Assembly: GCA_038142325.1 (NCBI GenBank)
Contig: JAYQJW010000002.1
Location: 399,702 to 463,701 of the forward strand
Reading direction: 5' to 3'
Length of the DNA stretch: 64,000 nt
Source of the DNA: Gammaproteobacteria bacterium
GTDB taxonomy: Bacteria; Pseudomonadota; Gammaproteobacteria; GCA-002705445; GCA-002716945
Shown here: in pieces, positions 8,878 to 33,764 of the stretch
Layout of the letters: every line of letters begins with the position of its first letter
Position numbering within the stretch: position 1 is the first letter of the stretch
Position numbers and translations under genes: made by a program
Notes under the pieces: model-generated
Databases searched by the model: none
Seen by the model: the letters and a program-made list of their open reading frames with translations, nothing else
Told to the model about the DNA's origin: nothing

Positions 8878-8883
8878 TGTAAT

Positions 8884-10310: not shown

Positions 10311-10332
10311 TCATTTTTGATATAATGATATT

Positions 10333-11016: not shown

Positions 11017-11017
11017 A

Positions 11018-12960: not shown

Positions 12961-14305
12961 ATTAATTGAACTTGATTTTAATATACCATCTCATGAAATT
13001 TTTGAATCTATAAAAGAGAATGACTGGGCAGTTTTCTTAAACAGTAATCATGAAAAATATCCTGATCAGAGATTTGACATAATTACTTCCAATCCTATAA
13101 AGAAAATAATTTTCAAAGATGATTCTGTTTTATTAGTAGAGAATGAAAATTTTATAAAGGAGCTTGATACATGTCCATTTGATTTACTTAGAGAGATAAT
13201 GAGTAATTATAAACGTGAACCTGTTGATGACATTCCATTTTGTGGAGGTGCTATTGGACATATTGCATATGATTATGGAAAAAAACTACATCAAATTAAA
13301 AGCTTAAATAAAAGTTTGAACTTTCCTTCTTTTGCTTTTGGTATTTATGATTGGGCAGTAATTTATGATTATCATAAAAAAAAAGCTTTTATCATTTATC
13401 ATGAAAATAATGCAGTAATTAAAAATATAAGCAATTACTCTCCAAAAGAGAAAAAATTAAATAGTAAAGATTCCTTTAAAATAACTTCAAGCTGTGAATC
13501 AAATATGAATTATGCTTTATATGAGATGAAGCTCATGAAAATACTAGAATATATTAAAGCAGGGGATTGTTATCAGGTTAATTTAGCTCAAAGATTTTCA
13601 CTGGCATATGAGGGAGATGAATATAATCTTTACCAACAGCTCAATAAAAATTTTTCATCCCCTTATTCAGTTTATTTTAACTCGCATAACGGGAAAATTT
13701 TATCATTCTCTCCAGAGAGATTTTTATCAATAAAAAATAATATCATTGAAACTAAACCCATTAAAGGGACAAGACCAAGATCTGATGATCCGATCATTGA
13801 TAAAAAGAACATTGATGATCTTAAATCATCTGAAAAAGATATGGCTGAAAACTTGATGATTGTGGATCTACTTAGGAATGATTTGAGCATTAACTGTAAA
13901 AAGGGTAGTGTAAAAGTTGATAAATTATTTGAAATTGAAACATTTGCTAATGTCCATCATCTTGTGAGTACAATAACTGGAGAAATTGATGAAAGTTCAA
14001 ATATTTATAATCTGATAAGAGATGCTTTCCCAGGAGGCTCAATTACAGGTGCTCCGAAACTTCGTGCGATGGAAATTATTGAGGAACTTGAGCCTGATGA
14101 AAGATCGATATACTGTGGATCTATAGGTTATATTAGTTTTGATGAAAAAACTGATTTAAATATATCAATCAGATCTATGCTATCTATTAATAATAATTTA
14201 TATTTCTGGGGCGGAGGAGGAATTGTCTATGATTCTGACATTCGCAGTGAGTACAATGAGACAATTTCTAAAGTTAAACCACTTTTAGATGCATTTTCTG
14301 ATTAA
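12947..14305 (+). CDS. pabB: Aminodeoxychorismate synthase component I (p-aminobenzoate synthesis)
   Basis: 452 aa with motifs SPERFL, IKGTRPR, AENLMIVDLLRND, FPGGSITGAPK and RSIYCGSIGY. Confidence 0.85.
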   Translation: MMKYKLIELDFNIPSHEIFESIKENDWAVFLNSNHEKYPDQRFDIITSNPIKKIIFKDDSVLLVENENFIKELDTCPFDLLREIMSNYKREPVDDIPFCGGAIGHIAYDYGKKLHQIKSLNKSLNFPSFAFGIYDWAVIYDYHKKKAFIIYHENNAVIKNISNYSPKEKKLNSKDSFKITSSCESNMNYALYEMKLMKILEYIKAGDCYQVNLAQRFSLAYEGDEYNLYQQLNKNFSSPYSVYFNSHNGKILSFSPERFLSIKNNIIETKPIKGTRPRSDDPIIDKKNIDDLKSSEKDMAENLMIVDLLRNDLSINCKKGSVKVDKLFEIETFANVHHLVSTITGEIDESSNIYNLIRDAFPGGSITGAPKLRAMEIIEELEPDERSIYCGSIGYISFDEKTDLNISIRSMLSINNNLYFWGGGGIVYDSDIRSEYNETISKVKPLLDAFSD

Positions 14306-14978
14306 CTCTCTTAATATGTTCTAAAACTTTCTCACAGTTTAGAGAATCTATTGTTGCTCTTTTAGATTGAGAACAAATAGCACCTCTTAATCCAATAAAA
14401 TTAGGACTAAAAGAAAAAACCTTTTCTAAATTTTTTGATGACAAGGAACCTGAAATTCCACACAGCTTATTATGTTGCCTACATTTTTCAGTGAAATACT
14501 CAATAAGATGATCTGGAAGAATATCTATGGAAGACCCAGCATTTTTGTTCTCAGTATCAATCATCAGCCCGTGATAATTTAATTCGCAAATAGAATCTAT
14601 CTGACTTTCATTTGTAATATACTCTGCAAACATAACACCCACAACTTTGATTGATAATCCTGAAACTGATTTTAAAAATGCTTTATGTTCATTGATGTTA
14701 TCCACACCATAAATTCCTATTTTAATATATTTAATCCCAAGCTTATTCATCAACATCAATCTGGATATCTGCTTTTGTGAGTTTGGATGTAAATCATTTC
14801 CTGCAGTAACACTTAAGGTTTTATTTTTAAACATTTTAGAGATGCTGCCTACAACGTCATCTCCTACATATCCAAGTGCACCATCCATGACATTTTTTAT
14901 ATCAATAATATCAAAATCGTATTTCGAGATAACCTTCGCCTCACTCACATCTTTTATACTGCCAAGAATCTTAATCAT
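14274..14978 (-). CDS. mfnB: DUF556/MfnB-like (5-formylfuran-3-yl)methyl phosphate synthase (methanofuran biosynthesis)
   Basis: 234 aa, colinear with archaeal MfnB as I recall it. Shared motifs include IIDIKN..GALG, YIKIGIYG, MIDT..K, GISGSL and IGLRGAIC. Confidence 0.7.
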   Translation of the reverse strand: MIKILGSIKDVSEAKVISKYDFDIIDIKNVMDGALGYVGDDVVGSISKMFKNKTLSVTAGNDLHPNSQKQISRLMLMNKLGIKYIKIGIYGVDNINEHKAFLKSVSGLSIKVVGVMFAEYITNESQIDSICELNYHGLMIDTENKNAGSSIDILPDHLIEYFTEKCRQHNKLCGISGSLSSKNLEKVFSFSPNFIGLRGAICSQSKRATIDSLNCEKVLEHIKRVNQKMHLKVV

Positions 14979-15543
14979 TATTAAAATATTTCATAATTTT
15001 TTTTTCTATCCATTTCCATGCTGCTCTTTCGTCTTCACCTGCAGTCTTATCTATGCCTATTTTTAGATACTCATACTCTCTTTTTACTTTATCATCCTCT
15101 ATTCTTCCTAATCGTGTAGAAAGCACTGCTAGTTCAATCACAGAAAACTGAGCTCTATTAAAGCCCATAAAAGGCCTTAGTATTTTAGTATTTTCTATAT
15201 TACATATAATATTTGGCCTTACAGCATCATCATTTTCCTGACAAAAGCTAACATTCATATATGTATTTGTAATATCCAAATGCGGTACACAATTATCTGA
15301 AACCTGATTTAAATCCCATGACTTTTTTTCCTCTGTAACAATGCCAGCAAACACTTTTACGTTATCAACATAATTAATTGTAGCCACTTTTGTATCAATA
15401 AGATTATTTAATGTTTGAGACGGTTTGAATGGAGAAATTTGAACACATTGCTTGTTATCAAAATCAATAAACTTTACACCCATTGGCGCTATGTGTACTT
15501 CTTTCTTTTTATTAAAGGTAGTTACTATTACTTCATGAATCAT
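14971..15543 (-). CDS. DUF447-family protein (FMN-binding split-barrel-like, H4MPT/methanofuran cluster)
   Basis: 190 aa with the N-terminal HEVIVTT....HIAPMGV typical of DUF447. It overlaps both neighbours. Confidence 0.55.
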   Translation of the reverse strand: MIHEVIVTTFNKKKEVHIAPMGVKFIDFDNKQCVQISPFKPSQTLNNLIDTKVATINYVDNVKVFAGIVTEEKKSWDLNQVSDNCVPHLDITNTYMNVSFCQENDDAVRPNIICNIENTKILRPFMGFNRAQFSVIELAVLSTRLGRIEDDKVKREYEYLKIGIDKTAGEDERAAWKWIEKKIMKYFNND

Positions 15544-16921
15544 TTTGTTCTTTTGAATGTTGGCCCTAATTTCTTTTCACTTATCATATCATCAATTTCT
15601 TTGTCAACTAAACATCCCCAAGTAAGTTCCTCATCTTGATGATAATTTTTCTTTAATTGAAATGCGATTTGTGCCCTTGCTAATTCAACACCAAGATAAA
15701 ATGCATGCCCTGTATCATCACTCAAATCAAGATACTCATAAAACTTAAAAGGGTCACTAAAAACTTTGTAAATATTCTTATTAAATAAATGTATCCCATC
15801 ATCATTGACATAAATACGATAGTTCTTGTCTTTGATTTTTGTTTGCATTTCACTTAGTTCATCTGAGCATAAAGGATAATCTTTATGATCATGATTTGCC
15901 ATTAACCCATCATTTATATGCTTTGGTGTAATATTATTTTCAGAAGCCGCATGAATTATTCTCCTTGCAAGGTCAGTTTCTCTTATGACTGTCGAACAAT
16001 GTCTACTGACCTGGGTTGTTAATATGTGGTTTAATTTGAGTTCTTCTACGATACCTAGCATTATCATATTTATTCCCGTAGTATCGGCATGAGTAAGTTC
16101 AGTGATATTTCCTATACCAATCATTATGTGAATGTCAGGATATTTTTCTCTCAAATTTACATACCTCATTAAACTTTTAGTAAACCCATATGAAACAGGG
16201 TCCAGAATAGGATCCGCTATGAAAGTTAAATTATCCTTTAAAGCTCTATCAATTAGGTTATAAAATTCAGGTAAATTATTATCTGATGGAATAAGAACAG
16301 GGTATGAGTCAAGGTTTTCAAGTATGTGATATGTCTCACTTTTAATACTTAAGAGATAATCTGCGCCAGCTTTAGAGCCACGAATCAATTCATCTGTATT
16401 ATGAGAATCAATACTGACATAGAAATTTCTATTTTTCAGTTCTTGGACCAACTCTTCAAGATGAGGGAATTCTTTATTTGGCAAACAACCAATATCTATT
16501 ACGTCAGCTCCTTCTGATCTAAAAAATTCTGCTTTTTCTATTACAGCTTCAATAGTCATATTTAATGCATCTGTAATTTCCCCAAATATTGCTGTTTCAA
16601 ATTTTGAAAGATCATATTTGACAGGTTTTGCTCCGAACATTATTGGTAAGTCTTTTAATTCATCAGGACCTCTGGTTACCTTCTTTTTGATGATCTTTTC
16701 AAGACGTTCTATATCCCCACGTACTCTTCCAGGAATTATAATCTCATCAAACTGACTAACATCACCAATACGTCTCTCAATCATGTCTGTTGTTAAAAGA
16801 GCCGCTACATTCACATTAAGATTTTTTATTTCGTATTTAAATTTTTTTCTTCAATACCATCAAGGACTGTCTTAAGGCCTTTTTCAGCTAATTTACCTGT
16901 AATGAATAAAATATTTTTCAT
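15540..16921 (-). pseudogene. Dihydropteroate synthase-related pterin-binding protein (H4MPT biosynthesis), frame break near its 5' end
   Basis: The main ORF is 15540-16814 (GADVIDIGC pterin-binding motif). The N-terminus MKNILFITGKLAEKGLKTVLDGIEEK is read from ATG at 16921 in another frame. The frames join across an A7 run (T7 on the plus strand at 16842-16848). Confidence 0.7.
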
Positions 16922-19842: not shown

Positions 19843-19876
19843 ATTGATATGTCTATTATAAATTCTATAATACAAA

Positions 19877-20203
19877 CGAGAGTTAATCATACAGCTGCTA
19901 TGTATTACATAGAGGAAAGTCCGGGCTCCAGGGAAAAAGTGCCAGGTAACACCTGGAAAACGTGAGTTTTGGAAAGTGCTGCAGAAAATAACCGCCTGTA
20001 AGAGGTAAGGGTGAAAAGGTAGGGTAAGAGCCTACCGCTACTAAGGTAACAAGGCAGGCATAAGTAAACCCCGCTTGGAGCAAGGCAAATTTGTGATTCA
20101 TCCCAATATAATCACATGGTTGCTGCTAATGAGATTATTGGTGACAATAATTCAAGATAAATAGCTGTACACGACAGAACCCGGCTTATAGATTAACTCT
20201 CTC
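19877..20203 (+). ncRNA. rnpB: RNase P RNA (bacterial type A), compact version
   Basis: It carries the universally conserved blocks GAGGAAAGTCCGGGCTCC, GTGCCAGGTAACACCTGG, GGTAAGGGTGAAAAGGT, AGCAAGGC and ACGACAGAACCCGGCTTAT. The P1 pairing is gagagttaatc with gattaactctc. Confidence 0.92.
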
Positions 20204-20309
20204 CAATTAATAATATCTTGTAAGTAACTGAAATATATTAAAAAATTCATATTTTAATCATTTTGTTCTTTATTTATCTACATTTTCATTAGTTTATCTC
20301 TATTACTAC

Positions 20310-20338
20310 TTGCATATGTTAAAAATAAGGCATATAGT
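20310..20338 (+). promoter_or_regulatory. Putative sigma70 promoter of the dcw cluster (TTGCAT-17 nt-TATAGT)
   Basis: -35 TTGCAT at 20310-20315, a 17-nt spacer, and -10 TATAGT at 20333-20338. It lies about 40 nt upstream of the mraZ ATG. Confidence 0.35.
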
Positions 20339-20376
20339 GTTGATAAATGGCATTATTTGTTATTTTGTGGAGAAAA

Positions 20377-20838
20377 ATGGAGAATCTATTTAAAGGTATT
20401 CACAATCTTAGCCTTGATTCAAAAGGTAGGCTCGGTATTCCTATTTCCTACCGAGAACATATTACAAACCTGTTAAAAGGCTCAATGGTGATAACTATTG
20501 ATACTGAGGATAAATGTCTACTTTTATATCCAACAACAATTTGGTCTAAGATTCAGGATAAAATCAGTAACTTACCAAGCTTTAATAGAAATGCTAGAAG
20601 AATTCAAAGACTCTTAATTGGCCACGCAGAAGACGTTGATGTTGACTCAAGCGGCAGAATTCTAATCTCAAAACCACTAAGACAATACGCATCTTTATCA
20701 AAAAAAGTCATATTGATTGGTCAAGGTGAAAAATTTGAGATTTGGGATCAGAATTCTTGGGATCGCAATGTTGAGAAATGGCGTGAAGAGGCAACCTCTA
20801 CTGATGATGCAGAAGCTTTAAATGGCATAAGTATATGA
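20377..20838 (+). CDS. mraZ: Transcriptional regulator MraZ
   Basis: MENLFKGIHNLSLDSKGRLGIP plus a second DSSGRILI repeat (two SpoVT/AbrB-like halves). The ORF track begins 10 codons upstream at 20347; the conserved start is taken at 20377. Confidence 0.88.
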   Translation: MENLFKGIHNLSLDSKGRLGIPISYREHITNLLKGSMVITIDTEDKCLLLYPTTIWSKIQDKISNLPSFNRNARRIQRLLIGHAEDVDVDSSGRILISKPLRQYASLSKKVILIGQGEKFEIWDQNSWDRNVEKWREEATSTDDAEALNGISI

Positions 20839-21029
20839 TAACTAATAACGACTATAGAATATTAGGAGTAAATGCTAATGATGACATGTCTGTAATAAAA
20901 GCAGCTTATAGAAGACTAGCGTCAAAATATCATCCAGACAAAAATAAGAACGATTCTCAATCTATCAAAATATTTATAAGAATTAAATCTGCATATGAAC
21001 ATATAAGGAGCTTCAAAGAAAATGAATAA
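20835..21029 (+). CDS. Stand-alone J-domain protein (64 aa)
   Basis: DYRILGV...AYRRLASKYHPDKN...AYEHI shows helices I-III of a DnaJ J-domain with an intact HPD motif. ATGA overlaps the mraZ stop, and there is an 8-nt overlap with the rsmH start. Confidence 0.7.
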   Translation: MITNNDYRILGVNANDDMSVIKAAYRRLASKYHPDKNKNDSQSIKIFIRIKSAYEHIRSFKENE

Positions 21030-21955
21030 TACTCAGTTCCATATTCCAGTAATGAAGAATGAAGCAATCAAACATCTGATAACGGATAAGAGTGGAGTAT
21101 ATATAGATGCTACCCTTGGATATGGGGGCCACTCAATTTCAATATTAGAAAATACTAATCAGGACGCAAAAATTTTTGCGGTTGATAAAGACAAGGATGC
21201 TATTGATTATAATAAAAAACAATTTGCGCAAGAGAATAGGTTTACCCTAAAACATGGATGTTTCTCTTCTCTTGATGAATATGCTAGGACATGGAATATA
21301 TATGGATCAGTTAACGGTATTTTGTTTGATCTTGGTGTTTCTTCTGTCCACTTAGATGATGCAGACAGAGGGTTTAGTTTCAATAAAGATGCTCCTTTAG
21401 ACATGAGATTCAATCGAACTTACGGCAAAAAAGCCTCAGAATATATAAATGAGTTACCAGAAAAAGATATTGAGCACATCTTAAGAGTATACGGGCAGGA
21501 AAAATTTTCAAAAAGAATTGCTAAAAACATAATCAAACATAGAGCATTGAGCCCTATTAACCAGTACTCTCGAGCTAGTGAATATAATCAACAAATCTGT
21601 TTTAGTTAATGATAAGAATAAACATAATGCGACCAGATCTTTTCAAGCTTTGAGAATCTTTGTCAACAAGGAACTAGATGTTCTCAAAAGTATTTTAGAA
21701 AAATCATACAGCATACTAGCCCCTAAAGGTAGATTAGTTCTTATAACTTATCATTCACTTGAAGAACGAGTTATAAAAGATTTTATGATATTGACCGATC
21801 ATAATTTATCTACACCTAGAAAAATACCCATAAAAAATGAATTTCTTAAAAAGTTATTTAACTTAATAAAAAAAATTAAACCATCTCAAAGTGAAATCAT
21901 AGAAAATACAAGATCAAGATCAGCAAAAATAAATGTATTGGAGAAATCAATATGA
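21022..21955 (+). pseudogene. rsmH: 16S rRNA (cytosine1402-N4)-methyltransferase RsmH/MraW, one frame break
   Basis: Fragments are 21022-21609 (HIPVM..., DATLGYGGHS, FDLGVSS) and 21578-21955 (RSFQALRIFVNKEL). The break is at about 21559-21563 (PIN / STLELVNII). Confidence 0.85.
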
Positions 21956-22221
21956 ATTTGACAGCTTCTTTTGTTTTAATTTTACTTATAACCATCTCAG
22001 CTTTTGGAGTTATCTTTATAAAATATCAAAATAGAATCTTAAATATTGAAATATCTGAAAATGAAAAGAAACATTATTATTTATCTGAATCATATAGACA
22101 GTTGCTAAAAGATAAAGCTGATATTACAGATAAAGTTTTACAAAAAAATAGCTTAGGAAAGGCTCTTAATATGCAGCTGCCAAGTAAAGAAAGAATTTTA
22201 ATCATGAATATTGATCAATAG
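21952..22221 (+). CDS. ftsL: Cell division protein FtsL
   Basis: 89 aa with a single N-terminal TM helix followed by a coiled-coil-like region. It sits in the canonical position after rsmH. Confidence 0.75.
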   Translation: MNLTASFVLILLITISAFGVIFIKYQNRILNIEISENEKKHYYLSESYRQLLKDKADITDKVLQKNSLGKALNMQLPSKERILIMNIDQ

Positions 22222-22230
22222 GAGGACACC

Positions 22231-23364
22231 ATGTTTGAAATAGTAAATAATTATAATCAAAATGCGGTTATCAAAGTTATTGGTGTAGGCGGTGGCGGTG
22301 GTAACGCTATTATGTCGATGCTTAAGTCTCAAATTCATGGGGCAGATTTTTTAATTGCAAATACTGATGTACAAGCCCTAAGGGATATAGACGGAGCAGT
22401 CACGGTTCAGATAGGCTCCGAAATAACCAAAGGATTAGGAGCTGGCGCAGATCCTGAAAAAGGTAGGCAAGCAGCACTTGAAGCAAGCGAAACTCTAAAA
22501 GAGTCAATTGAAGGAGCAGATATGCTTTTCATAGCCGCTGGTATGGGTGGTGGAACAGGAACAGGTGCAGCACCAGTTATTGCCCAGATTGCTAGGGATT
22601 TAGGTATACTTACTGTCGCTGTAGTCACAAAACCATTCGATTTTGAGGGTCCAGAGAGAATGGCAAATGCACAAGAAGGCATAGATAATCTAGAACAATG
22701 GGTGGATTCACTCATCGTAATACCAAATTCAAAACTTAAAGAGGTTTATGGCGGAGGAGAATCCATATTTTCATCATTTGAAAACGCTAATGATGTACTG
22801 AGAGGTGCTGTCAAAGGAATAACAGAAATTATAACTATTAGAGGTTTTATGAATGTGGATTTCGCAGATGTTAAAACCGTAATGTCAGGAATGGGCAAGG
22901 CAATGATGGGTTCAGGTGTTTCATCTGGTGAAAATAGAGCTGAAGAAGCTGTTACTACAGCACTTAGCAGTCCTTTACTTGATAACATAAACCTTAAAGG
23001 TGCAAGTGGAGTTCTTGTAAACATTACATCTGGTTCAGATTTGACTACAGATGAATTTGAAGTTATTGGAAATAAAATCAGAGAAATTGCACATGAAGAC
23101 GCTAAGATTATCACCGGCTGTATTAAAGAAGACGATAATATAGGAGACTTGAGAGTTACTATAATTGCAACAGGTTTTGCACAAAACAATGTAGCAGATA
23201 TTGTAACTACTGAATCCTCTTTAGAAGAACAACCTAAAGAAAATATGAATAGTGTAACAAGCTTTCAAAACTCAAATAATAATATTGAACATGTAGATCT
23301 ATCTGGACAAGAAGATCAAACTTCAATAGACATACCAGCATTTTTAAGACAACAAGCTGATTGA
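22231..23364 (+). CDS. ftsZ: Cell division GTPase FtsZ (in a non-canonical position between ftsL and ftsI)
   Basis: 377 aa with GVGGGGGNA, the tubulin signature GGGTGTGAAP, NTDVQAL and the C-terminal peptide DIPAFLRQQAD. A strong aggagg RBS overlaps the ftsL stop. Confidence 0.97.
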   Translation: MFEIVNNYNQNAVIKVIGVGGGGGNAIMSMLKSQIHGADFLIANTDVQALRDIDGAVTVQIGSEITKGLGAGADPEKGRQAALEASETLKESIEGADMLFIAAGMGGGTGTGAAPVIAQIARDLGILTVAVVTKPFDFEGPERMANAQEGIDNLEQWVDSLIVIPNSKLKEVYGGGESIFSSFENANDVLRGAVKGITEIITIRGFMNVDFADVKTVMSGMGKAMMGSGVSSGENRAEEAVTTALSSPLLDNINLKGASGVLVNITSGSDLTTDEFEVIGNKIREIAHEDAKIITGCIKEDDNIGDLRVTIIATGFAQNNVADIVTTESSLEEQPKENMNSVTSFQNSNNNIEHVDLSGQEDQTSIDIPAFLRQQAD

Positions 23365-23378
23365 TAGTAAAGTAAAAA

Positions 23379-25079
23379 ATGAAAAATGGAGACTATTATT
23401 ATTTTTAATAATAGCCTCCATTACACTTCTAATAATTATTATTAGATTATATTTAATCCAAATCAAAGGTACTGATTGTTTTTATTTCAACGAGAGTGCT
23501 TGCAAGGAAAATATATTAAATGAGGGAAAAAAAAGACAGATACAAAATATAATAACTAAAGAGCAGCGGGGTATTATATTTGATAGAAATAACAATATCT
23601 TAGCAATGTCATTGCCTTCTAAGACTTTATGCATTAATCCAAGTAAGCTTTACACTATAGAACATAAAAGTGATTTAAAAAAAATTTCAGAAATTATTAA
23701 TATTCCTTATCAGAAAATCAAGAAAACAATATACAGAAATAAAGATAAAAAGGAATATTATTTAAAAAGACATATTTCAAAATTAGAGTTTACAAAGATT
23801 GAAAAATATACAAACTCTTATATTTATTTCATTAATGAAAGTAAAAGATCGTATTTAGGAGGCGAGGCATTTTCTAATGTTCTAGGTTTTACTAATGTTG
23901 ATGATGTGGGACAGGAAGGAATTGAGCTTGCCAAAAATGAAGTCTTAAAACCTTCAGATGGAATTAAAAAAAATAAAAAAAGATAATATCGGTCGAGCTA
24001 TTGAAACATTAGAAATCATAAAGAAATCTAAGGCTGGATTAGACATTACACTTACGCTTGATAAGCAAAAACAAATTATTGCATATGATGTTTTGAAGAA
24101 ATATGTAAAGAAGTTTGAGGCAGACAGCGCATCTATTGTTCTTATTGAAACAGCTACTGGTAATATTTTGTCAATGGCAAATTATCCTTCTTTTGATCCA
24201 GAAACAAGAAAAAGTTATACAGGTGCAAAAATCAAGAACAGAATTATTCATGATTTAATAGAGCCAGGATCAACCATAAAGCCCTTAATAATTTATGCCG
24301 GACTTCATCATAATACGATTAATCACGATACGATCATTGATACTGCCCCAGGAGTCATAAAGCTTGATGATAAAGAAATTAAAGATTGGAAATTTTTAGG
24401 AAAAGTTTCATCAGGAGATATCATTAAGTACTCGAGCAATATTGGTGCGGCTAGGGTATCAACAATGCTATCAAAAAAACAACTAATCAATAATCTTGAG
24501 AAATTTGGATTTGGACATTCACTATATATAGATCTTCCAGGATCTAGATATGGAAAGTTACCAACAACTAATGAAATATCGAAATCTGAACATCACAGTA
24601 TTGGTTATGGGTATGGTATCTCTGTATCATTAATGCATTTAGTGAATGCATATACGATACTGGCAAATGAGGGGTATTATACTCAACTGAAATATATCAA
24701 TAGTAATGAATCATACTTTGAGAAGGGGCATCAGTTGTTAGATAGTAAAAAAACATCAATCGTTCTTAATATGATGAAGAAAGTAGTTCACTCAGATGAT
24801 GGAACTGGAAAAAAAGCTAAAGTCAATGGATATACGACATACGGTAAAACAGGTACCGTAAGACTTCTAAAAAATGGAAAATATAATACCAATAACCACA
24901 ATGCATTATTTGTTGGCATAGTAGGAGATCCTGCACCTAAATTTGTTGCAGCTGTTATTATAAGAGAACCAAAAGACAGACAAGGCTCAGGAGGTTATCA
25001 TGCTGCACCAGTTTTTGGTGAATTCATGCAACATATCATGAGAATTGATAGCAACATAGAATATGCAGGCTCAAGATAA
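23379..25079 (+). pseudogene. ftsI: Peptidoglycan D,D-transpeptidase FtsI (PBP3), two frame breaks
   Basis: STIKP, SSN and KTGT motifs are present. The TM anchor WRLLLFLIIASITLLIIIIRLYLIQIKG is open from about 23372 but out of frame with ATG at 23379 (A5 run at 23382-23386). The second break is in the A8/A7 runs at 23966-23981. Track fragments are 23606-23986 and 23958-25079. Confidence 0.85.
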
Positions 25080-26484
25080 ATTAAAACAATATAAAAATTT
25101 TATCTTATGCAACACACGGCATGACAAGTATTTATCAAATAGATTTTGTATTAATTCTAAGTATTTGAGAGAGAATCAGGTATTTATATCACTTGAGAAA
25201 AACATCAAAAAAAATTTTTCTAATATAAAAGATGCTATAAAAAAAGGCGCAAGTGGATTTATCACTCCATTTATTTACTCACGGAAAATACTTAATAAAC
25301 CGGTTCCTTATTTAGTATCAAAAGATATCTTCAGTACATATAGTAAGTTGTTTAAATATGATTTATTAAAAATTAAGCAATTACCTTGCCTTATTGGAGT
25401 TACTGGGACTAATGGAAAGACTTCTACGTCATTACTACTTGCAGATTCACTAACAATACAGAATAAAAAAGTAGGATTAATTTCAAGTGAGGGTGTCGGC
25501 ATATACCCTAATACTTTGCAAAATGATTATACAACACCACCAATTGATATAATTTACAAAAATATAATTAATTTTTCATTGAAGAAATGTGATTACATTA
25601 TCATTGAGTGTTCATCACAAGGGTTACATCAAGGAAGATTAGACGGTATATATTTTGATTATTCAGTAATAACAAATATTGATAAAGATCATATTGATTA
25701 TCATAAAACTCTAAGGGATTACATTCATTCAAAGTTAAATATAATTAATCAGAGCATAAAAGTAGTATTGAATCATGATTGTATAAATTTAAAAAAAATT
25801 GATAATTCCCAATATAAATGTAAACAAAAGTATTACATCTCAAAAAATCCAATAAACAAAAAAAATTTTATAGATACAGATATCTTAGGATCATTTCATA
25901 AAACAAAAATGAATCCTTTTAATAAGTATTCGATAAAATTAATAATCGCATTAATGAAGCTAGAGAATTTCAGTATTGATGAAATATTAGAATCTATATC
26001 CAGATTGAGACCACTAAAAGGTAGAAGACATATTATATCTACAAAACACAATGGCATATTTTTAATAGATTATGCACATACTGAACAAGCTTATAAAAAT
26101 ATATTTTATGATTTTTGTAAAAATAAAAAAGTTCGTACTTTATTTGGATGTGGCGGTGACAGAGATACTTCTAAAAGAAAGTTAACTGCAAAGATTGTTG
26201 ATAAATTCTCATCAGAAATAATAATGACAGAAGATAACTCTAGAACCGAAAAATTTTCTGTTATCAAAAAAGATATTATTTCTGGCATCGTACATAAAAA
26301 TAGAGTCAGGGTTATTGAAAACAGGAAAAAAGCAATAAAATATCTTTTTGAAACCTCAACCAAAAACGAATTAAATTTAATACTAGGTAAAGGTAATGAA
26401 AACTTTATTCTAAAAAATAACAGAAAAATAAAGCATAATGATATTGATTATTTAGAGGGTCTAATAAGTAAGAATGGAAGTTAA
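25063..26484 (+). CDS. murE: UDP-N-acetylmuramoyl-L-alanyl-D-glutamate--2,6-diaminopimelate ligase
   Basis: 473 aa with GVTGTNGKTST, DYAHTEQA and GCGGDRD motifs, in the canonical dcw position. Confidence 0.88.
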   Translation: MQAQDKLKQYKNFILCNTRHDKYLSNRFCINSKYLRENQVFISLEKNIKKNFSNIKDAIKKGASGFITPFIYSRKILNKPVPYLVSKDIFSTYSKLFKYDLLKIKQLPCLIGVTGTNGKTSTSLLLADSLTIQNKKVGLISSEGVGIYPNTLQNDYTTPPIDIIYKNIINFSLKKCDYIIIECSSQGLHQGRLDGIYFDYSVITNIDKDHIDYHKTLRDYIHSKLNIINQSIKVVLNHDCINLKKIDNSQYKCKQKYYISKNPINKKNFIDTDILGSFHKTKMNPFNKYSIKLIIALMKLENFSIDEILESISRLRPLKGRRHIISTKHNGIFLIDYAHTEQAYKNIFYDFCKNKKVRTLFGCGGDRDTSKRKLTAKIVDKFSSEIIMTEDNSRTEKFSVIKKDIISGIVHKNRVRVIENRKKAIKYLFETSTKNELNLILGKGNENFILKNNRKIKHNDIDYLEGLISKNGS

Positions 26485-27810
26485 ATTGACAAATATATCA
26501 AAATTTCTATCTTCAAGTTTATATGGAGAAGATGCTTTTATTAATAACATTAGTATTGATAGCAGAGATGTTAAAAAAGGTGATCTATTCATTGCTATTA
26601 AGGGAGATAATTTTGACGGGCATGATTTTATAGATGAATCAATAAAAAATGGCGCATCAGCAATTGTTTGCAATAAATCAGCAACAAAAAGAGTGCGGCA
26701 ACATACCTCATATTATTTGTGATGATACTATTGACGCATTGGGTGTAATTGCATGCAACCTAAAAAAAACTATGGGGCAACCATTTACAATTGGAGTTAC
26801 TGGCACAAATGGAAAAACATCAGTAACAAAGCTTACTGCCGAAATATTAAAACAATCATTCAATGTAAGCACTACCATTGGAAATTTTAATAATGATATT
26901 GGATTACCATTATCAATTTTTAAGGCATTTAATAACGAAACTGATAAATGTGTTTATGAGTTAGGAGCAAGTAAAAAAAATGATATTTCTCAACTAGTTA
27001 ATATATGCGAGCCTGATATGACGACATTATTAAATGTTTCAGAAGCTCATATGCAATCTTTTGGAAATATGGAAAATCTTATTTCTACAAAAGAGGAAAT
27101 TTTTTCTCATCCAAGAACCAATCAAGTAATCTTAAATAAAGATGACTTATATTATTCTAAGTGGGCTAGACTCAATAATGATAAAAAAATTACCACAATT
27201 TCAGCTAAAGAAAATGCGGACTATATGATCAAATATAATAATGAGACTGGATTGTTATTTCACAACTGTTAAAGGAGATTTCAGTATTGATAAAAAATAT
27301 ACTACTGGCCATCTCCCTATCAATATGTTGTTTAGCGTTTCATTAGCAATGGAAGCTGGAGCAAATATCGAGGATGTTCAAAATGGCTTGCAATCATTTA
27401 AAGGAGTAAAAGGTAGGTTTTACAAATTTATATCAAAAAATAAATCCACTGTAATTGATGATTCTTATAATGCGAATCCTATGTCCATGAAATCGTCTAT
27501 TAAGCAACTTGAGATTTTTAGTAAAGATAAAATATTTATTATGGGAGATATGGGAGAGCTAGGTGATGCAGCTCTTGAGCATCATATAGAAATTTTTCGT
27601 TTTGCAAAGGATTCAGGTATAAAATATTTACTATACATGGGTAATTATAAATCTGAAGCTAAGTCAATATTTGGAAAACGCTGTTATACTTATAGCGATA
27701 TGAGTGATTTAATAAATCATGCAAAACAGTTATCTAATAGTGATAGTGTAATTTTGATTAAAGCATCAAGATTTATGAGTTTTGATTTAATAGCTGAAGG
27801 TTTGAAATAG
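26474..27810 (+). pseudogene. murF: UDP-N-acetylmuramoyl-tripeptide--D-alanyl-D-alanine ligase MurF, two frame breaks
   Basis: There are three colinear fragments: 26474-26722, 26649-27272 (GVTGTNGKTS) and 27241-27810 (DDSYNANP, GDMGELG). The breaks are at about 26.65-26.70 kb and 27.24-27.27 kb. Confidence 0.85.
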
Positions 27811-27813
27811 ACA

Positions 27814-28899
27814 ATGCTTCTAAATTTTTTCGAATATCTATCTCAATTCAATTCAGGTTTTAATGTATTTCAATATCTGACACTCAGAATTGTAATGGGT
27901 GCATTGACATCACTTCTCATCTCATTAATCCTTGGTCCGTATATTATTTCTTTTTTAAGAAGTAAACAATTTTATCAGTCTATAAGAGAGGATGGTCCAC
28001 AAAATCACCTCAGTGATAAGAATACAACTCCTACTATGGGAGGTATTATAATAATATTTAGCGTTGTTATCTCGACTATACTTTGGTCTGATTTAGGGAA
28101 TCAATATGTTCTTATACTTCTATTTGGGATTTTAAGTTTTGGACTGATAGGCTTCTATGATGATTATAAGAAACTAATAAAAAAAAACAGCGATGGCATT
28201 AAAGGAAGATTTAAACTTTTATTTCAAATAATTTCTGCATCACTGATTACTATTTACTTATTCATATACATGGATACTGGTCAAATTAGTTCTGTGATGC
28301 CTTTTTTAAAAGATAATAGCTTTCAACTTGGTATTTTATTTATACCTTGGTCTATATTTATTTTGGTAGGTTCATCAAATGCTGTAAATCTGACAGATGG
28401 CCTAGACGGACTTGCTATTTTACCTTGTATACTAATCGCATCTGCATTTGTTATTTTTTCTTATGTTCATGGAAATGTAAATATATCTGAATATTTATTG
28501 ATACCTTATATTGAGGGTTCTGGAGAATTAGCAATATTTTCAGCTTCATTAGTTGGAGCTGGTCTCGGTTTCCTTTGGTTTAATTCATATCCTGCCGAGA
28601 TATTTATGGGCGATTGTGGGTCTTTATCACTTGGCAGCTCTCTAGGCTTATTAGCTATTATCTTAAAACAGGAACTTGCATTTGCGATCATGAGCGGAAT
28701 TTTTATTGCAGAAGTTTTGTCGGTAATCCTTCAAGTATCATCATATAAATTACGAAATGGAAAAAGAATCTTTAAGATGGCTCCTCTTCATCATCATTAT
28801 GAGCTCTCAGGCTTGTCAGAGCCTAAAATCATTATGAGATTTTGGATAATTACATTCGTTCTCGTTCTCATCGCATTATCTACTTTGAAGATTAGATGA
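27814..28899 (+). CDS. mraY: Phospho-N-acetylmuramoyl-pentapeptide transferase
   Basis: 361 aa, polytopic. Motifs are TPTMGG, NAVNLTDGLDGLA and APLHHHYE. Confidence 0.95.
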   Translation: MLLNFFEYLSQFNSGFNVFQYLTLRIVMGALTSLLISLILGPYIISFLRSKQFYQSIREDGPQNHLSDKNTTPTMGGIIIIFSVVISTILWSDLGNQYVLILLFGILSFGLIGFYDDYKKLIKKNSDGIKGRFKLLFQIISASLITIYLFIYMDTGQISSVMPFLKDNSFQLGILFIPWSIFILVGSSNAVNLTDGLDGLAILPCILIASAFVIFSYVHGNVNISEYLLIPYIEGSGELAIFSASLVGAGLGFLWFNSYPAEIFMGDCGSLSLGSSLGLLAIILKQELAFAIMSGIFIAEVLSVILQVSSYKLRNGKRIFKMAPLHHHYELSGLSEPKIIMRFWIITFVLVLIALSTLKIR

Positions 28900-30173
28900 A
28901 TATTTTTCAATCCTCTTTTTTAATATTAGGAAAAGGAACAACATTTAGACATTGCAGTGAATTTTTTAAAAAAAATGATGTAACTTATTCCTCATTAGTA
29001 ACAGAGGATATTCTAGAAATAAAAGAAAATATTATTATTTTAAAGCATGGTGAAATTAACTTAAAAAATATTGATTATATTGTAATAAGTCCAGGAATTT
29101 CCTCTTCAAATCCGATTGTTAGACGTCTATTTACTATAAAGTCAAAAATAATTACTGACATAGAGATTCTTCAAAAACTATCATCATCGAAATTTATATG
29201 TGTTACTGGAACTAATGGTAAAACCTCTACTGTAAACTTACTAGCTGATATTTTGAATGACAATGATATAAGCGCTATAGCATGTGGCAATAATGGGGTA
29301 TCAGTGTTTGACTCTCTAGAAAAACCATATGAATATGTCATTCTTGAGATATCGAGTTACCAGCTAGAGTATATAAATAAATTAAAATCATTTATTTCTA
29401 TAGTTCTAAACATATCAATGGATCATATTGATAGGCATAAATCTTTAACTAATTATATAAATTTGAAATTGAGAATTTTTAATAATTCAAAATTTCAGAT
29501 TATAAATAGCAAGCTAAAAAAATATTATCATTGCCAGACATTTGAAATTAAAAAAAATAAATTTTTAATAGATAATACTGCATTAGATAATCTATTTATC
29601 AATGAAGATAATATGATAGTTTTTGAAGATGAAAAATATGCTATTTCTGGTAGGCATGAAGCATTAAATTTATGTGCGTGTATACCAATATTAAAAAAGC
29701 TAAATTTTTCTATAACTAAAATTATCGAATCCTTTTCAAAACGTAATTTTTTACAACATAGAGTTGAAGAAATTTGTACATATAAAGGAGTAAAATTCAT
29801 CAATGATTCAAAATCTACAAATGCAGATTCTACATTGAATGCTCTTAATTCAGTAAAAGAAAATATTATTTTAATTATGGGTGGGGATGATAAAAAAATA
29901 TCATATGAGAGCTTAATAGATATCATTAATGAAAAAGTAAAATCTCTTGTGATTATTGGTGAGAATAAAACTTTAATTAATGACTTAGATGTAAAGGTTA
30001 AAAAGTCTTACATAGAAAATCTAGAGGATGCAATATCTTATATTTTATCCAATGTAGTTTCAGGTGATACTGTACTCATGTCACCTGGAACATCTAGTTT
30101 TTATCATTACTCTGACTACATGGAAAGAGGCGAGCATTTTAAATCATTAGTTAAGAAACATGCTAATCAATAA
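28896..30173 (+). CDS. murD: UDP-N-acetylmuramoylalanine--D-glutamate ligase
   Basis: 425 aa with VTGTNGKTST and DSKSTN motifs, in the canonical position. Confidence 0.88.
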   Translation: MNIFQSSFLILGKGTTFRHCSEFFKKNDVTYSSLVTEDILEIKENIIILKHGEINLKNIDYIVISPGISSSNPIVRRLFTIKSKIITDIEILQKLSSSKFICVTGTNGKTSTVNLLADILNDNDISAIACGNNGVSVFDSLEKPYEYVILEISSYQLEYINKLKSFISIVLNISMDHIDRHKSLTNYINLKLRIFNNSKFQIINSKLKKYYHCQTFEIKKNKFLIDNTALDNLFINEDNMIVFEDEKYAISGRHEALNLCACIPILKKLNFSITKIIESFSKRNFLQHRVEEICTYKGVKFINDSKSTNADSTLNALNSVKENIILIMGGDDKKISYESLIDIINEKVKSLVIIGENKTLINDLDVKVKKSYIENLEDAISYILSNVVSGDTVLMSPGTSSFYHYSDYMERGEHFKSLVKKHANQ

Positions 30174-31307
30174 AATAAAAAATACTTTCGACTTCTTTGA
30201 CAGTAGAGGGCTAGATAATATCTTTTTAATATGTATTACAAGTCTTCTTCTAATTGGTTTGGTGATGATAACCTCATCCACGGCTGATTTTGCTGCAAGA
30301 AAATTTTCTAATCCACTTTTCTTTTTTAATAAACATTTAATTTTTATAATGTTGGGCTTAATAGTCTTGTATTTTGTATCAAGAATCAAAATGAAACTAT
30401 ATTACGATTATGGTCAGTTCTTCTTTTACTATCAATCTTTCTATCTTTATTAGTTCACATACCAGGCATCGGTTTAACAGTAAATGGCGCAACAAGATGG
30501 ATAAATCTTGGGATATTTACATTACAAATATCAGAAATCTCAAGACTATTCTTTTTTATTTGGTTGTCTGGTTTCATTGTTAGAAATGATTTTAATAAAA
30601 ACTCTCTTAAAATATTCATTTTTTTAACTATTTTAATGATGGTAATTGTTTCCCAAAGGGATTTCGGCAGTATGATATTGTTATTTATGTCATTTATAGT
30701 GTTTGCTTTTCTCAGCAACTTAAAAATATCCCACCTTTTCAAATTACTTGCTTTCACTGCTATACCTATTTTTTTATTAATTTTTTTATATCCTTATAGA
30801 ATTCAAAGATTACTTGCATTTATAGATCCATGGAGTGACCCTCAAGGGGGTGGCTATCAAATAATTGCCTCTCAAATTGCGCTATCTTCAGGAGGACTCT
30901 TTGGACAGGGACTAGGGTCTAGTATGCAAAAATTATTTTATCTTCCAGAGCAGTATAATGACTTTATACTCGCTATAATTGGAGAAGAATTAGGCTTCAG
31001 TTTCTTATTAATATTATTAGTCTTGTATGTTATTTTGTTTACAAGAATATTTACTTTTTATAAAAGAACGTTGAATATATCTCAATTTTCATCAAATATT
31101 ATTTTATCTATTTTTCTTTTAATTATTATGCAAACTACAATTCATGTTTTAGTAAATATAGGATTATTTCCTACCAAAGGCATGGGGTTACCATTTATAA
31201 GTTATGGAGGTACGAATTTACTTCTTATGTTTACATATATTGGAATCTTGATAAGAATTCAAATAGAAAATAAACAGAACATTAGTCAAGCTGTTCAGAA
31301 TAACTAA
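30160..31307 (+). pseudogene. ftsW: Peptidoglycan glycosyltransferase FtsW (SEDS family), one frame break
   Basis: Track fragments are 30160-30453 and 30564-31307. The conserved stretch HIPGIGLTVNGATRWINLGIFTLQISEISRL is read in the second frame from about 30415. The break is at about 30390-30420. Confidence 0.85.
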
Positions 31308-31309
31308 AA

Positions 31310-32401
31310 ATGAAAAAAAGTATATTAATTGTTGCTAGTGGTACAGGTGGACATGTGGTTCCTGCAATTAACGTATCAGAAAAATTATTGAATCATAAGC
31401 TACAAATTATATGGATTGGTACTAAGAATGGAATTGAAAATAAGATAGTAAAAAGAAAAGATATAACTATAAAGCATATTAAGTCATCAGGCATAAGAGG
31501 TAAAAACATCATTGATACTATAAGAGGTTTATTTAATCTTATTCAATCATTTTTTCAAAGCCTAGTTATCATTCACAAGGAGAAGCCTCTTTTTATTCTT
31601 GGATTTGGTGGCTATATTAGTGTGCCAGTATCTTTTGCTGGTTTTGTGATGAGAGTACCAGTTTATGTTCATGAATCAAATTCAATAGCAGGCACCGCAA
31701 ATAAACTAAATAACAAAATATCCAGAAATACATTTCAAACCTTCCCTAAAACGTTTCCATCAAGTAACAAAATAATTCTCTCAGGAAATCCTATTAAAAG
31801 CAGTTTTGATAATATCGAAAAACCTGAGCTTAAGTATGCGATGAAAAAAAATAAGATTAATATACTCATTTTTGGTGGCAGTCAAGGATCTAAATTTTTT
31901 AATGAAGTAATTCCATTCTGCTTATCTGATGATAAAGATTTGTTTTCTGTAAAGCATATATCAGGTGCTAATAACTTGGAAATAGTTAAGAATAGCTACA
32001 AAAAAAATAATCTATCTGCGGAGGTTATTGAGTTTTCAAATCAGATGGATGAGATGTACAATTGGGCAGATATTGTGATATCTAGGTCTGGATCAATGAC
32101 TGTAACTGAGATATCACACTCTGGAAGAGCATCTATTCTTGTCCCTTTTTTGTATGCAACAGATAACCATCAATATCATAATGCCAAATATTTAGTTGAG
32201 AAGAGTGCAGCTATCCTTATTGAAGAAAATAAAAATTTTTCGAAAAACCTTAAATCCTCACTAAAGCATCTATACTCTAACCAGAAGAATCTATTAAAAA
32301 TCGCAATAAATGCCAAAAATCTTTTTCCTAATGATTCAGGTGATATAATCATAAAAAATATTCCTGAACTAGATGAAAAACTCAATAACGCAACATCTTA
32401 A
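31310..32401 (+). CDS. murG: UDP-N-acetylglucosamine--N-acetylmuramyl-(pentapeptide) pyrophosphoryl-undecaprenol GlcNAc transferase
   Basis: 363 aa with ASGTGGHVVPA and GGSQG motifs. Confidence 0.9.
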   Translation: MKKSILIVASGTGGHVVPAINVSEKLLNHKLQIIWIGTKNGIENKIVKRKDITIKHIKSSGIRGKNIIDTIRGLFNLIQSFFQSLVIIHKEKPLFILGFGGYISVPVSFAGFVMRVPVYVHESNSIAGTANKLNNKISRNTFQTFPKTFPSSNKIILSGNPIKSSFDNIEKPELKYAMKKNKINILIFGGSQGSKFFNEVIPFCLSDDKDLFSVKHISGANNLEIVKNSYKKNNLSAEVIEFSNQMDEMYNWADIVISRSGSMTVTEISHSGRASILVPFLYATDNHQYHNAKYLVEKSAAILIEENKNFSKNLKSSLKHLYSNQKNLLKIAINAKNLFPNDSGDIIIKNIPELDEKLNNATS

Positions 32402-33764
32402 AAATAAATCATTTTTTCTGATTGGTATTGGAGGCGCAGGTATGATGGGTATTGCTGAGTTACTTCATAATATGGGTTTTTCTGTCAGAGGCTCCGATAT
32501 TAAAATCAATACTGCAATTACTAGATTACGTGAGCGAAAAGTCAAAATATTTATCGGGCATGATCCAAAAAATATTAAAACTAATGACATTGTTGTACAT
32601 TCGAATGCAATTAGTAAGAACAATGTCGAGCTTAAGCACTCTATTAAGTCCGGCCTGACTGTTCTAGCTAGAATGGAGATACTTGCTGAACTAATGAGAT
32701 TAAAGTATGGAATATCCATTACTGGCTCTCATGGCAAAACAACTACAACAAGCTTGTTAAGTCATATAATGTATTCAAATAATCTTGACCCAACATATCT
32801 AATTGGAGGTAAACTTAAAACAGATGACCCTCATGTTAATCTGGGGAAAAGTCATTATCTAGTGACAGAGACCGATGAAAGTGATCCAACTTTTTCATTA
32901 CTACAACCTCATCTTGTTGTGCTAACTAATTTAGATAAAGAACATCTTGAAAACTACAACAATAATTATACAAACCTAGAGAGATCTGTTCTAAAACACA
33001 TAAACTCTATTCCTTTTTATGGAAAAGTATTCTTGAATGGTGATGATAAAAACTCAAACAAATTATTCAAACATATAAACAGAGAGATATTTAGTTATGG
33101 ATTTACTAAAAATAATGACTTGAGAGCTAAGTCAATTATGTACACAAATACATATATGATGTTTGATGTTCATTATGATAATCATGTTTACCCAGTTCAA
33201 ACCAATCTTTTTGGTAAGCACAACATTTATAATATTCTTGCTGCAGTTTCAGTAGCTATACATCTAGGTATAGATACACGTAAAGCTCTGAAATCCCTCA
33301 AGACATTTTATGGAGCTAGCAGAAGATTCGATATTTATGATAATTTAAATATTAAAAACTCTAAACCTACGATAATAGATGATTATGGACATCATCCAAC
33401 TGAAATTCAGTCAACAATTAAAACAATTAAGGAAATTTATCCTAAAAGAAAAATAGTTATGGTGTTTCAACCTCATAGATACTCTAGAACAAAACTTCAC
33501 TGGAAATTATTCTCAGAAATATTGTCATCATTAGATGTAGTGCTATTGCTACCAACGTATTCAGCAGGAGAAAAGAATAACTCATATGATTCAGAATATT
33601 TGTTTAAGAAAATCAGAAATAGAAATAAGGTTTATGTTAAATCTATAAAAAACATAATTCCTGAGTTAAATAAATTAAATCTTGAAAATTGTGTTGTTGT
33701 ACTTCAGGGAGCAGGTGATATAAGAGAAATTCTTAATTTAATAAAAGCAAATGCAGACATATAA
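32373..33764 (+). CDS. murC: UDP-N-acetylmuramate--L-alanine ligase
   Basis: 463 aa with GIGGAGMMGIAELL, GSHGKTTTTS and DDYGHHPTE motifs. Confidence 0.92.
   Translation: MKNSITQHLKNKSFFLIGIGGAGMMGIAELLHNMGFSVRGSDIKINTAITRLRERKVKIFIGHDPKNIKTNDIVVHSNAISKNNVELKHSIKSGLTVLARMEILAELMRLKYGISITGSHGKTTTTSLLSHIMYSNNLDPTYLIGGKLKTDDPHVNLGKSHYLVTETDESDPTFSLLQPHLVVLTNLDKEHLENYNNNYTNLERSVLKHINSIPFYGKVFLNGDDKNSNKLFKHINREIFSYGFTKNNDLRAKSIMYTNTYMMFDVHYDNHVYPVQTNLFGKHNIYNILAAVSVAIHLGIDTRKALKSLKTFYGASRRFDIYDNLNIKNSKPTIIDDYGHHPTEIQSTIKTIKEIYPKRKIVMVFQPHRYSRTKLHWKLFSEILSSLDVVLLLPTYSAGEKNNSYDSEYLFKKIRNRNKVYVKSIKNIIPELNKLNLENCVVVLQGAGDIREILNLIKANADI

Follow-up and report, generated by a model that had tools for sequence, protein, structure and literature searches.

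We analysed a 64,000-nt stretch of the gammaproteobacterial contig JAYQJW010000002.1 (in the following, the window), which carries a cluster of genes for cell division and the cell wall (dcw cluster) with ftsZ at an unusual position. The listing of open reading frames (ORFs) and Pfam scans reveal one co-directional dcw cluster on the plus strand at 20347-37408, in which each ORF is assigned by Pfam, i.e., the dcw gene set is complete on one strand. The genes are ordered mraZ, a 64-aa J-domain ORF, rsmH, ftsL, ftsZ, ftsI, murE, murF, mraY, murD, ftsW, murG, murC, murB, ddl, ftsQ and ftsA. On the 3' side, lpxC comes first; next are a small DciA-like gene in the opposite orientation and secA, with zapD farther on (Table 1). 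This differs from the canonical dcw order, since ftsZ is found between ftsL and ftsI while lpxC directly succeeds ftsA.

The comparison with the dcw cluster of E. coli K-12 (mraZ-rsmH-ftsL-ftsI-murE-murF-mraY-murD-ftsW-murG-murC-ddlB-ftsQ-ftsA-ftsZ-lpxC) shows a shared gene set that lies on a single strand, starts with mraZ and has lpxC and then secA on its downstream side. All genes but ftsZ keep their relative order and lpxC has its own promoter-like site before it. In contrast to E. coli, ftsL and ftsI enclose ftsZ and ftsA abuts lpxC. Furthermore, murB is located inside the cluster, rnpB lies directly upstream and ftsI lacks a canonical start. The J-domain ORF between mraZ and rsmH is an extra gene at a place where the canonical cluster has nothing.

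The relocated gene is a single uninterrupted ORF (PF00091 E=4e-47, PF12327 E=6e-30). Its product shows the G-box GGGTGTG in GMGGGTGTGAAPV as well as the T7-loop MNVDFADV (NVDFAD), both aligned to the same motifs of solved FtsZ. The protein ends in ...IDIPAFLRQQAD and carries the FtsA/ZipA-binding tail peptide DIPAFLRQQAD, which reads DIPAFLRKQAD in the solved-structure match. The nearest solved structures are enterobacterial-type (E. coli-like) and Pseudomonas-type FtsZ chains (full-length alignment, E=1e-120), and 99-100% identical proteins occur in public assemblies. Judged by these features, the gene at 22231 is a canonical FtsZ of the ordinary gamma/beta type. That is, ORF, Pfam and motif data confirm what an initial annotation of the window had stated, namely a full-length, intact ftsZ with tubulin signature, DIPAFLRQQAD tail and its own AGGAGG. 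The same holds for the coordinates of the two junctions, i.e., the ftsL stop at 22219-22221 with a 9-nt spacer to the ftsZ ATG at 22231, as well as the ftsA end at 37408 followed by 65 nt up to the lpxC ATG at 37474, with no ftsZ remnant in between.

To place the window among its relatives, we compared the synteny of close genomes (recovered loci are labelled L001 and so forth). The order is common to the whole clade, i.e., it was found in more than 30 independent assemblies comprising short-read contigs, single-cell genomes and long-read contigs. The arrangement ftsL-ftsZ-ftsI recurs in L001-L021, L086, L101 and L106-L118, and ftsA-lpxC in L089-L102, L104-L106, L108-L110 and L114-L120. For ftsL-ftsZ-ftsI, this includes five short-read contigs from Tara and JGI Illumina data (L004-L008, FtsZ 99% identical), GBR nanopore-hybrid contigs of 283-946 kb (L001-L003), and at least 15 GTDB species representatives with 66-99% identical FtsZ, among them the single-cell genomes AG-894-P10, AG-461-I20 and AG-390-N19. 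Every recovered contig with a 79-100% identical FtsA shows ftsA, a spacer of 61-65 nt, and lpxC.

A scan seeded with the MurB of a distant member yielded a second diverse group (in the following, the sister group) with FtsZ 62-68% and FtsA 62-69% identical to the window. Here, single contigs carry ftsZ-ftsI-murE...murG-murB-ddl-ftsQ-ftsA-lpxC-secA; both ends, ftsZ-ftsI and ftsA-lpxC, are found on one contig in L101, L106, L108, L114, L115 and L118. FtsZ identity across the two deep sister groups thus spans 62-99%. Since both junctions are common to the two groups, they are older than the split of the groups. In the outgroup loci (FtsZ at most 55% identical; Proteobacteria, Bacteroidota, Firmicutes, Spirochaetota and others), ftsA lies directly before ftsZ wherever the flank was recovered, while outgroup lineages without a detected ftsA have mur genes upstream of ftsZ. 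In most gammaproteobacterial outgroups, lpxC comes after ftsZ.

The rearrangement is therefore old, fixed and clade-wide, and not a chimera. Because it is found throughout the clade, the order is a clade character and no peculiarity of this genome. Both the proposal of a clean, fixed rearrangement (instead of a recent insertion or chimera) and the reading that ftsZ now precedes the mur block at a distance from ftsQ-ftsA are supported by the two junctions, which are present in Illumina, single-cell and nanopore-hybrid contigs and in both sister groups. Beside this, the sister group (L018, L021, L101-L118) lacks murC inside the cluster and reads murG-murB-ddl. The absence of murC between murG and murB marks a second dcw rearrangement in the wider clade.

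A chimeric assembly or misjoin, with a real genome ordered ftsA-ftsZ-lpxC, might be suspected, since the assembly behind the window is clearly error-prone: within 18 kb, about 10 single-base indels separate it from near-identical assemblies. These errors are single-base indels throughout and none is structural. Both junctions are recovered base for base in independent assemblies from different oceans and projects, and they are also present in lineages only 62-88% identical in FtsZ, such that we attribute virtually no probability to this explanation. When aligned to assemblies that are 97-99% identical, each indel is private to the window. The affected genes rsmH, ftsI, murF (twice), ftsW, murB, ddl, ftsA and secA are intact in those relatives; rsmH is intact with 310 aa in L004, L007 and L008, and the genes from murE to ftsQ are all intact in L089-L094. 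Being private, the indels point to an error-prone, probably long-read, assembly as their source, i.e., by the alignments they are base-level assembly errors that leave the gene order unaffected. True pseudogenisation of the cluster is ruled out, as the indels are missing from near-identical assemblies and secA is hit too. An RND permease is also split in the window (49128-52159).

The gene at 22231 might also be an extra paralogue, with the division FtsZ encoded elsewhere in the genome. The reading covers 64 kb of the present genome and, in the relatives, about 10 kb on each side of ftsZ, which is a point against our interpretation. Still, we consider a paralogue very improbable: the window contains no other FtsZ-like sequence, none of the relatives examined has an ftsZ in the usual place after ftsA, and the gene has all canonical features of a full-length FtsZ including the FtsA-binding tail. 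In addition, the genomes are very small and streamlined, as follows from contigs of 1.01-1.05 Mb, which carry an FtsA 98-100% identical to that of the window, and from circular metagenome-assembled genomes (MAGs).

The affiliation of the clade can be read from the single-cell genome AG-461-I20 (whole-genome shotgun project CACLCV01, locus L013), whose FtsZ is 86% identical to that of the window. It is listed as o__GCA-002705445; f__GCA-002716945 (PMC11582366, Supplementary Table 6), which replaces the earlier guess of a SUP05/Arctic96BD-19-type organism. For the order GCA-002705445, a basal position within the Gammaproteobacteria and dissimilatory methylotrophy have been reported (PMC8371827). 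In agreement with this report, positions 1-16800 of the window carry C1 genes linked to tetrahydromethanopterin (H4MPT) and methanofuran, i.e., formylmethanofuran dehydrogenase A and B, mch, beta-RFAP synthase, and MptN-like, MfnD-like and MfnF-like genes. Genomes of this order are low in GC and mostly known from nanopore-hybrid assemblies, with 34 circular MAGs; they are hard to assemble and scored incomplete (bioRxiv 10.1101/2025.05.13.653689). The GC content of the window is 30.8%. Overall, the clade consists of uncultured low-GC marine Gammaproteobacteria with genomes of apparently about 1 Mb. SAR86, E01-9C-26 and TMED127 were weighed as affiliations and discarded.

With regard to the origin of the relocated gene, we compared the divergence of proteins from the same loci to the gammaproteobacterial outgroups. 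FtsZ (48-54%) is in line with FtsA (46-47%), MraY (52-56%) and LpxC (57-62%), and composition (GC content and skew) is continuous across 22-24 kb. On these grounds, the simplest reading of the sequences is an internal move: in the clade ancestor, ftsZ would have moved within the dcw cluster from after ftsA to the ftsL/ftsI junction, while the rest of the cluster and its flanks keep the usual gammaproteobacterial order. A xenologous replacement, i.e., insertion of a foreign ftsZ with its ribosome-binding site (RBS) and terminator hairpin between ftsL and ftsI and later deletion of the native copy after ftsA, would fit the cassette-like appearance of the unit (own GGAGG, ORF and 3' hairpin), the hairpin that canonical gammaproteobacteria often have directly after ftsZ, and the sharp drop of FtsZ identity from 62-68% in the sister group to at most 55% outside the clade. 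A donor from within the Gammaproteobacteria is compatible with the data. Nevertheless, we regard such a replacement as improbable, given that FtsZ is no more divergent than expected from FtsA, MraY and LpxC, that no GC or skew break is visible, and that the protein is of typical gamma/beta type in its MFE... N-terminus, its tail and its enterobacterial/Pseudomonas-type structure matches.

The border between ftsZ and ftsI needs revision. The initial annotation had ftsI start at ATG 23379, which leaves a 14-nt junction. Translation from this ATG yields MKNGDYYYF followed by a stop and is out of frame with FtsI; the ftsI ORF actually abuts or overlaps the ftsZ stop. The FtsI frame is +1 relative to ftsZ, is open from 23348, and enters the membrane helix at TGG 23387 (Trp). 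The encoded stretch, ...KVKNEK-WRLLLFLIIASITLLIIIIRLYLIQ, is a match to the membrane anchor of E. coli FtsI (WR...R..LQ). No canonical start (ATG, GTG or TTG) is present in this frame before the helix in the window. Among 20 lineages, 19 likewise show no in-frame ATG, GTG or TTG from -16 to the helix, with L018 as the exception.

The same 20 lineages indicate how the spacer between the ftsZ stop and the helix is read. In the FtsI frame, none of 166 spacer codons is a stop, compared to 39/155 and 10/162 in the other two frames. The spacer always measures 23, 26 or 29 nt, such that the FtsI phase is always +1, and the tail it encodes is rich in Lys and Asn, as expected for an N-in anchor. Given the open frame, the restricted lengths and the Lys/Asn-rich tail, the spacer is almost certainly translated as the cytoplasmic tail of FtsI. 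Public FtsI gene calls of the clade (L001, L005 and others) begin at an ATG inside the gene, about 240 nt past ftsZ, and comprise 489-490 aa without the membrane anchor. It is the lack of a canonical start that produces these truncated calls, an artefact of annotation.

Where FtsI translation could begin is narrowed down by an AUU at -4 and/or a CUG at -7, which overlap the ftsZ stop in every lineage. In the sister group, AAGG is found 7 nt before the CUG. Compared to what characterizes coupled gene pairs, ftsI has no canonical start that overlaps or adjoins the upstream stop but keeps a fixed phase with that stop. We infer from these sequence features that ftsI initiation is weak, non-canonical and probably coupled. 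A precedent for scarcity by non-AUG initiation is the AUU start of E. coli infC. As in infC, a near-cognate codon (here AUU or CUG) is the only start candidate before an essential N-terminal segment. In contrast to infC, the candidate overlaps the stop of the upstream gene, which suggests termination-reinitiation.

Other routes to FtsI were considered and rejected. Neither ATG 23379 nor transcriptional slippage on the A5 run can serve as the start, since five assemblies with identical sequence at this place leave the ATG out of frame, and it is not conserved in other lineages. Against an FtsZ-FtsI fusion by programmed +1 frameshifting, we reason that the +1 frame opens only 16 nt ahead of the stop and that tRNA-Asp on GAU/GAC is unable to re-pair on AUU/ACU. 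An out-of-frame ATG, GTG or TTG over the Trp codon (xTGGAG) exists in some lineages only and most likely arises where the codon ahead of TGG ends in A.

The second conspicuous feature of this border is a stem-loop. In each of the 20 lineages considered, it begins at a distance of 20-29 nt from the ftsZ stop. In the window, its 17-nt arms are 94% complementary around a 4-nt loop, and no other entry in the inverted-repeat list of the 64 kb has both long near-perfect arms and a separate loop. Folding yields -19.3 kcal/mol (z=-5.4), and eight lineages range from -17 to -25 kcal/mol (z -3.5 to -5.5). Covariation was tested on an ungapped alignment of 20 sequences with 500 shuffles and with slid registers as control, and also in a 15-sequence version. 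Across the 20 lineages, 86% of the cells are paired compared to 31-59% in slid registers, 10 of the 14 pairs show two-sided changes, and the covariation score of 0.553 (0.266 in shuffles) is reached by none of the 500 shuffles. Between subgroups, the arms are wholly different (GGAGACUAUUAUUA, GGCUGCUGUUAU, GGAGACAAUA) while pairing is kept. The stem occupies codons for the first half of the membrane helix of FtsI, and the amino acids change together with the stem (L-L-L, Q-Y-F, Q-Y-I). An Rfam search returned no known RNA family at the hairpin.

With regard to a terminator function, energies and covariation thus identify a stable stem-loop. It could nevertheless be without RNA function, either as a side effect of AT-rich sequence that codes for a repetitive hydrophobic helix or as a DNA palindrome that the rearrangement left behind, such as a site for protein binding or recombination. 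The hairpin does lie wholly inside the codons of the FtsI helix, where T/A-rich coding of low complexity can self-pair, and E. coli ftsI also has a 9-bp hairpin by its W-R codons. However, pairing is maintained despite the divergence of the arms, at the 10/14 pairs changed on both sides and well above the slid registers, the amino acids change such that the stem is kept, and a sequence-specific DNA site would keep its sequence rather than its pairing. Among the inverted repeats listed, the element is also the best true hairpin. We thus consider an element without RNA function unlikely. The E. coli K-12 hairpin (L121, 2460-2490; GCCAACU...AGUUGGC) ends at the W-R codons of ftsI, near where the clade hairpin begins, which may be coincidence.

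Strong hairpins are also found directly after ftsZ in the canonical loci of Salinisphaera, Woeseiaceae, Lysobacterales and Neisseria, but not in E. coli. As in the clade, these stem-loops are located 0-30 nt after the ftsZ stop. In contrast to the clade element, they are GC-rich and part of the non-coding ftsZ-lpxC spacer. By analogy, this suggests that the hairpin could have travelled with ftsZ. Homology to the outgroup hairpins was rejected, since they are alike in position without sequence similarity.

We also screened the region for promoters and ribosome-binding sites. Upstream of mraZ, the promoter-like TTGCAT-17-TATAGT and the bases after its -10 element are invariant in both groups, in an otherwise poorly conserved spacer. 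Counted from this site, ftsZ is the fifth gene at a distance of about 1.9 kb. The AGGAGG of ftsZ ends 5 nt ahead of the ATG in the window; its GGAGG is invariant in 15 lineages and is the sole full GGAGG among the gene starts of the cluster, while ftsA has no recognisable Shine-Dalgarno sequence. A second conserved block precedes lpxC, i.e., the candidate promoter TTGTAA-17-TGGTAGAAT, which is conserved in the group with 79-100% identical FtsA (L089, L095, L098). An internal ftsZ promoter in rsmH or ftsL was rejected, since no block is conserved across both groups and the consensus scan performs no better than on shuffles.

Two observations concern the spacer between ftsA and lpxC. A T(G)GTCTAA(T) motif 10-20 nt after the ftsA stop (window 37420-37427; L095-L118) is conserved in both groups, while the rest of the spacer is not. 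Furthermore, lpxC of this subgroup has no Shine-Dalgarno sequence (37438-37476), whereas the sister group shows GGAG/GAGAC before the ATG. Given a candidate promoter that ends 7 nt before the ATG and the missing Shine-Dalgarno sequence, the lpxC mRNA may be leaderless in this subgroup.

Based on these features, we propose a step-down model of expression. ftsZ would owe its transcription to the mraZ promoter, near which it lies, and would be translated strongly. At the stem-loop, expression would step down from ftsZ to ftsI and the mur genes, be it through partial termination (attenuation), through stabilisation of the upstream transcript at its 3' end, or because ftsI initiation is blocked. 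FtsI would be made at low level from the near-cognate AUU or CUG overlapping the ftsZ stop, and FtsA, encoded by the last gene without Shine-Dalgarno sequence, would be low as well. lpxC would keep its own promoter in the 65-nt spacer. In E. coli, promoters inside ddlB, ftsQ and ftsA drive most of the ftsZ transcription, and these promoters, along with the location of ftsZ after ftsA, are taken to determine the FtsA:FtsZ ratio. The suggestion of the initial annotation that the move separates ftsZ from the ftsQAZ promoters and from this ratio is plausible. Promoters internal to ddlB, ftsQ and ftsA cannot serve ftsZ here. Instead, the excess of FtsZ over FtsA and FtsI would depend on gene position, on the strength of ribosome binding and on the hairpin.

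Similar solutions are known from other systems. In the reduced dcw operon of mollicutes, mraZ-mraW-(ftsA-like)-ftsZ, ftsZ is likewise found within about 2 kb of a MraZ-regulated promoter and co-oriented with mraZ and rsmH. This proximity results there from the loss of cell-wall genes, while here all mur and fts genes are kept and ftsZ was moved ahead of them. Intercistronic stem-loops set unequal expression within operons, as known for REP elements in malEFG, the puf operon hairpin and partial intrinsic terminators. The clade element resembles them as a stable, conserved stem-loop 3' of a gene needed in excess and 5' of genes of low need. It differs in that it is not intergenic but part of the codons for the membrane anchor of the downstream gene, and its effect on mRNA levels is a presumed one.

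Taken as a whole, we judge an ancestral move of ftsZ that became fixed in the clade, together with the step-down model, to be likely. Several points count against it. The window hairpin has no U-tract on the plus strand: its tail reads AUUACACUUC, and a terminator scan flags the site on the minus strand only. Clean U-tracts are found in L014, L016 and L114 only, with weak ones elsewhere. Missing in the window and patchy in the clade, the U-tracts make classical termination doubtful. The AUU and CUG near the stop could be coincidental, since conserved FtsZ codons for Ala-Asp give rise to them. Promoter-like matches in this region of 31% GC number 112, compared to 117 expected from shuffles. As consensus matches are no commoner than in shuffles, we put weight only on the two conserved blocks before mraZ and lpxC. 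Finally, the sister group is assumed to belong to the same GTDB order as AG-461-I20.

A narrower and more tentative idea, which we find possible but rather doubtful, is that ftsZ and ftsI form a coupled expression unit of a new type. FtsI would then have lost its canonical start and RBS and would be made only by ribosomes that terminate on ftsZ and re-initiate at the AUU or CUG. The stem-loop, dual-coding as RNA structure and as membrane-helix codons, would gate the number of ribosomes or transcripts that pass. If true, this would tie the septal transpeptidase to FtsZ synthesis at a fixed low ratio and would be a streamlined-genome replacement for the canonical multi-promoter control.

The remaining features of the locus are summarized in Table 1. 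mraZ is called with 153 aa and 163 aa in relatives. The J-domain ORF is also present in a sister-group locus (L021, 8598-8800) and is called as a gene in L002-L004 and L006-L008; on one long-read contig, the gene call fuses it with rsmH. The C-terminal helix of FtsA reads ...KISDYFQKEL in the window. Upstream, the neighbourhood of rnpB is presumably the same in Pseudomonas. Downstream, relatives show the order lpxC-secA-argJ-nudix-zapD-coaE, a flank which we take to resemble that of Pseudomonas as well.

Table 1. Features of the dcw region and its flanks (positions within the window).
Feature	Position	Strand	Evidence and remarks
Sigma-70-like site before rnpB	19844-19871		11/12 match
rnpB (RNase P RNA)	19879-20204	+	Rfam RF00010, 256 bits; directly upstream of mraZ, 5' boundary of cluster
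Candidate Pmra promoter	20310-20338	+	TTGCAT-17 nt-TATAGT; both hexamers invariant in both sister groups
mraZ	20347-20838	+	PF02381 E=3e-34; start may be ATG 20377
Stand-alone J-domain ORF, 64 aa	20835-21029	+	PF00226 E=7.5e-16; HPD motif; between mraZ and rsmH
rsmH/mraW	21022-21955	+	PF01795 on two ORFs; split by 1-nt insertion near 21557
ftsL, 89 aa	21952-22221	+	PF04999; stop TAG 22219-22221 overlaps ftsZ Shine-Dalgarno
ftsZ Shine-Dalgarno AGGAGG	22220-22225	+	
ftsZ, intact, 377 aa	22231-23364	+	PF00091, PF12327
ftsI frame	23348-25079	+	PF03717, PF00905; 1-nt insertion at 23966
Candidate non-canonical ftsI starts	CTG 23357, ATT 23360		both overlap ftsZ stop
Conserved stem-loop	23385-23422	+	17-nt arms, 4-nt loop; core of 14 pairs 23388-23401 / 23406-23419
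murE, murF, mraY, murD, ftsW, murG, murC, murB, ddl, ftsQ	25063-36134	+	Pfam; canonical order
ftsA	36163-37408	+	414 aa in relatives; frameshift at 37175 in window; stop TAA 37406-37408
Candidate lpxC promoter	37438-37466	+	TTGTAA-17 nt-(TGG)TAGAAT; ends 7 nt before lpxC ATG
lpxC	37474-38382	+	PF03331 E=7e-109; directly after ftsA, 65-nt spacer
DciA-like gene	38375-38671	-	between lpxC and secA
zapD	43327-44088	-	downstream flank
Single-base indels	21557, 23966, 26685, 27248, 30421, 34531, 34993, 37175, 39011		

The dcw order is among the most conserved gene strings in bacteria, with ftsQ-ftsA-ftsZ as its most constant part (PMC8871954). A literature search for the order ftsL-ftsZ-ftsI, whose scope did not include the main dcw survey (Megrian et al. 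2022), found no description of it. We report a well-known cluster in a variant that is new, extends over a whole clade and comes with an unexpected, regulatory-looking RNA element, and not a new kind of system. For studies of the under-sampled order GCA-002705445, the ftsL-ftsZ order provides a cheap synteny marker. Since a whole abundant marine lineage has long lived with ftsZ detached from ftsA, the position behind ftsA is not obligatory. The lineage is thus a natural experiment on why the dcw order is conserved, and it offers a natural alternative to study, i.e., a strong RBS, a conserved hairpin and an ftsI without canonical start.

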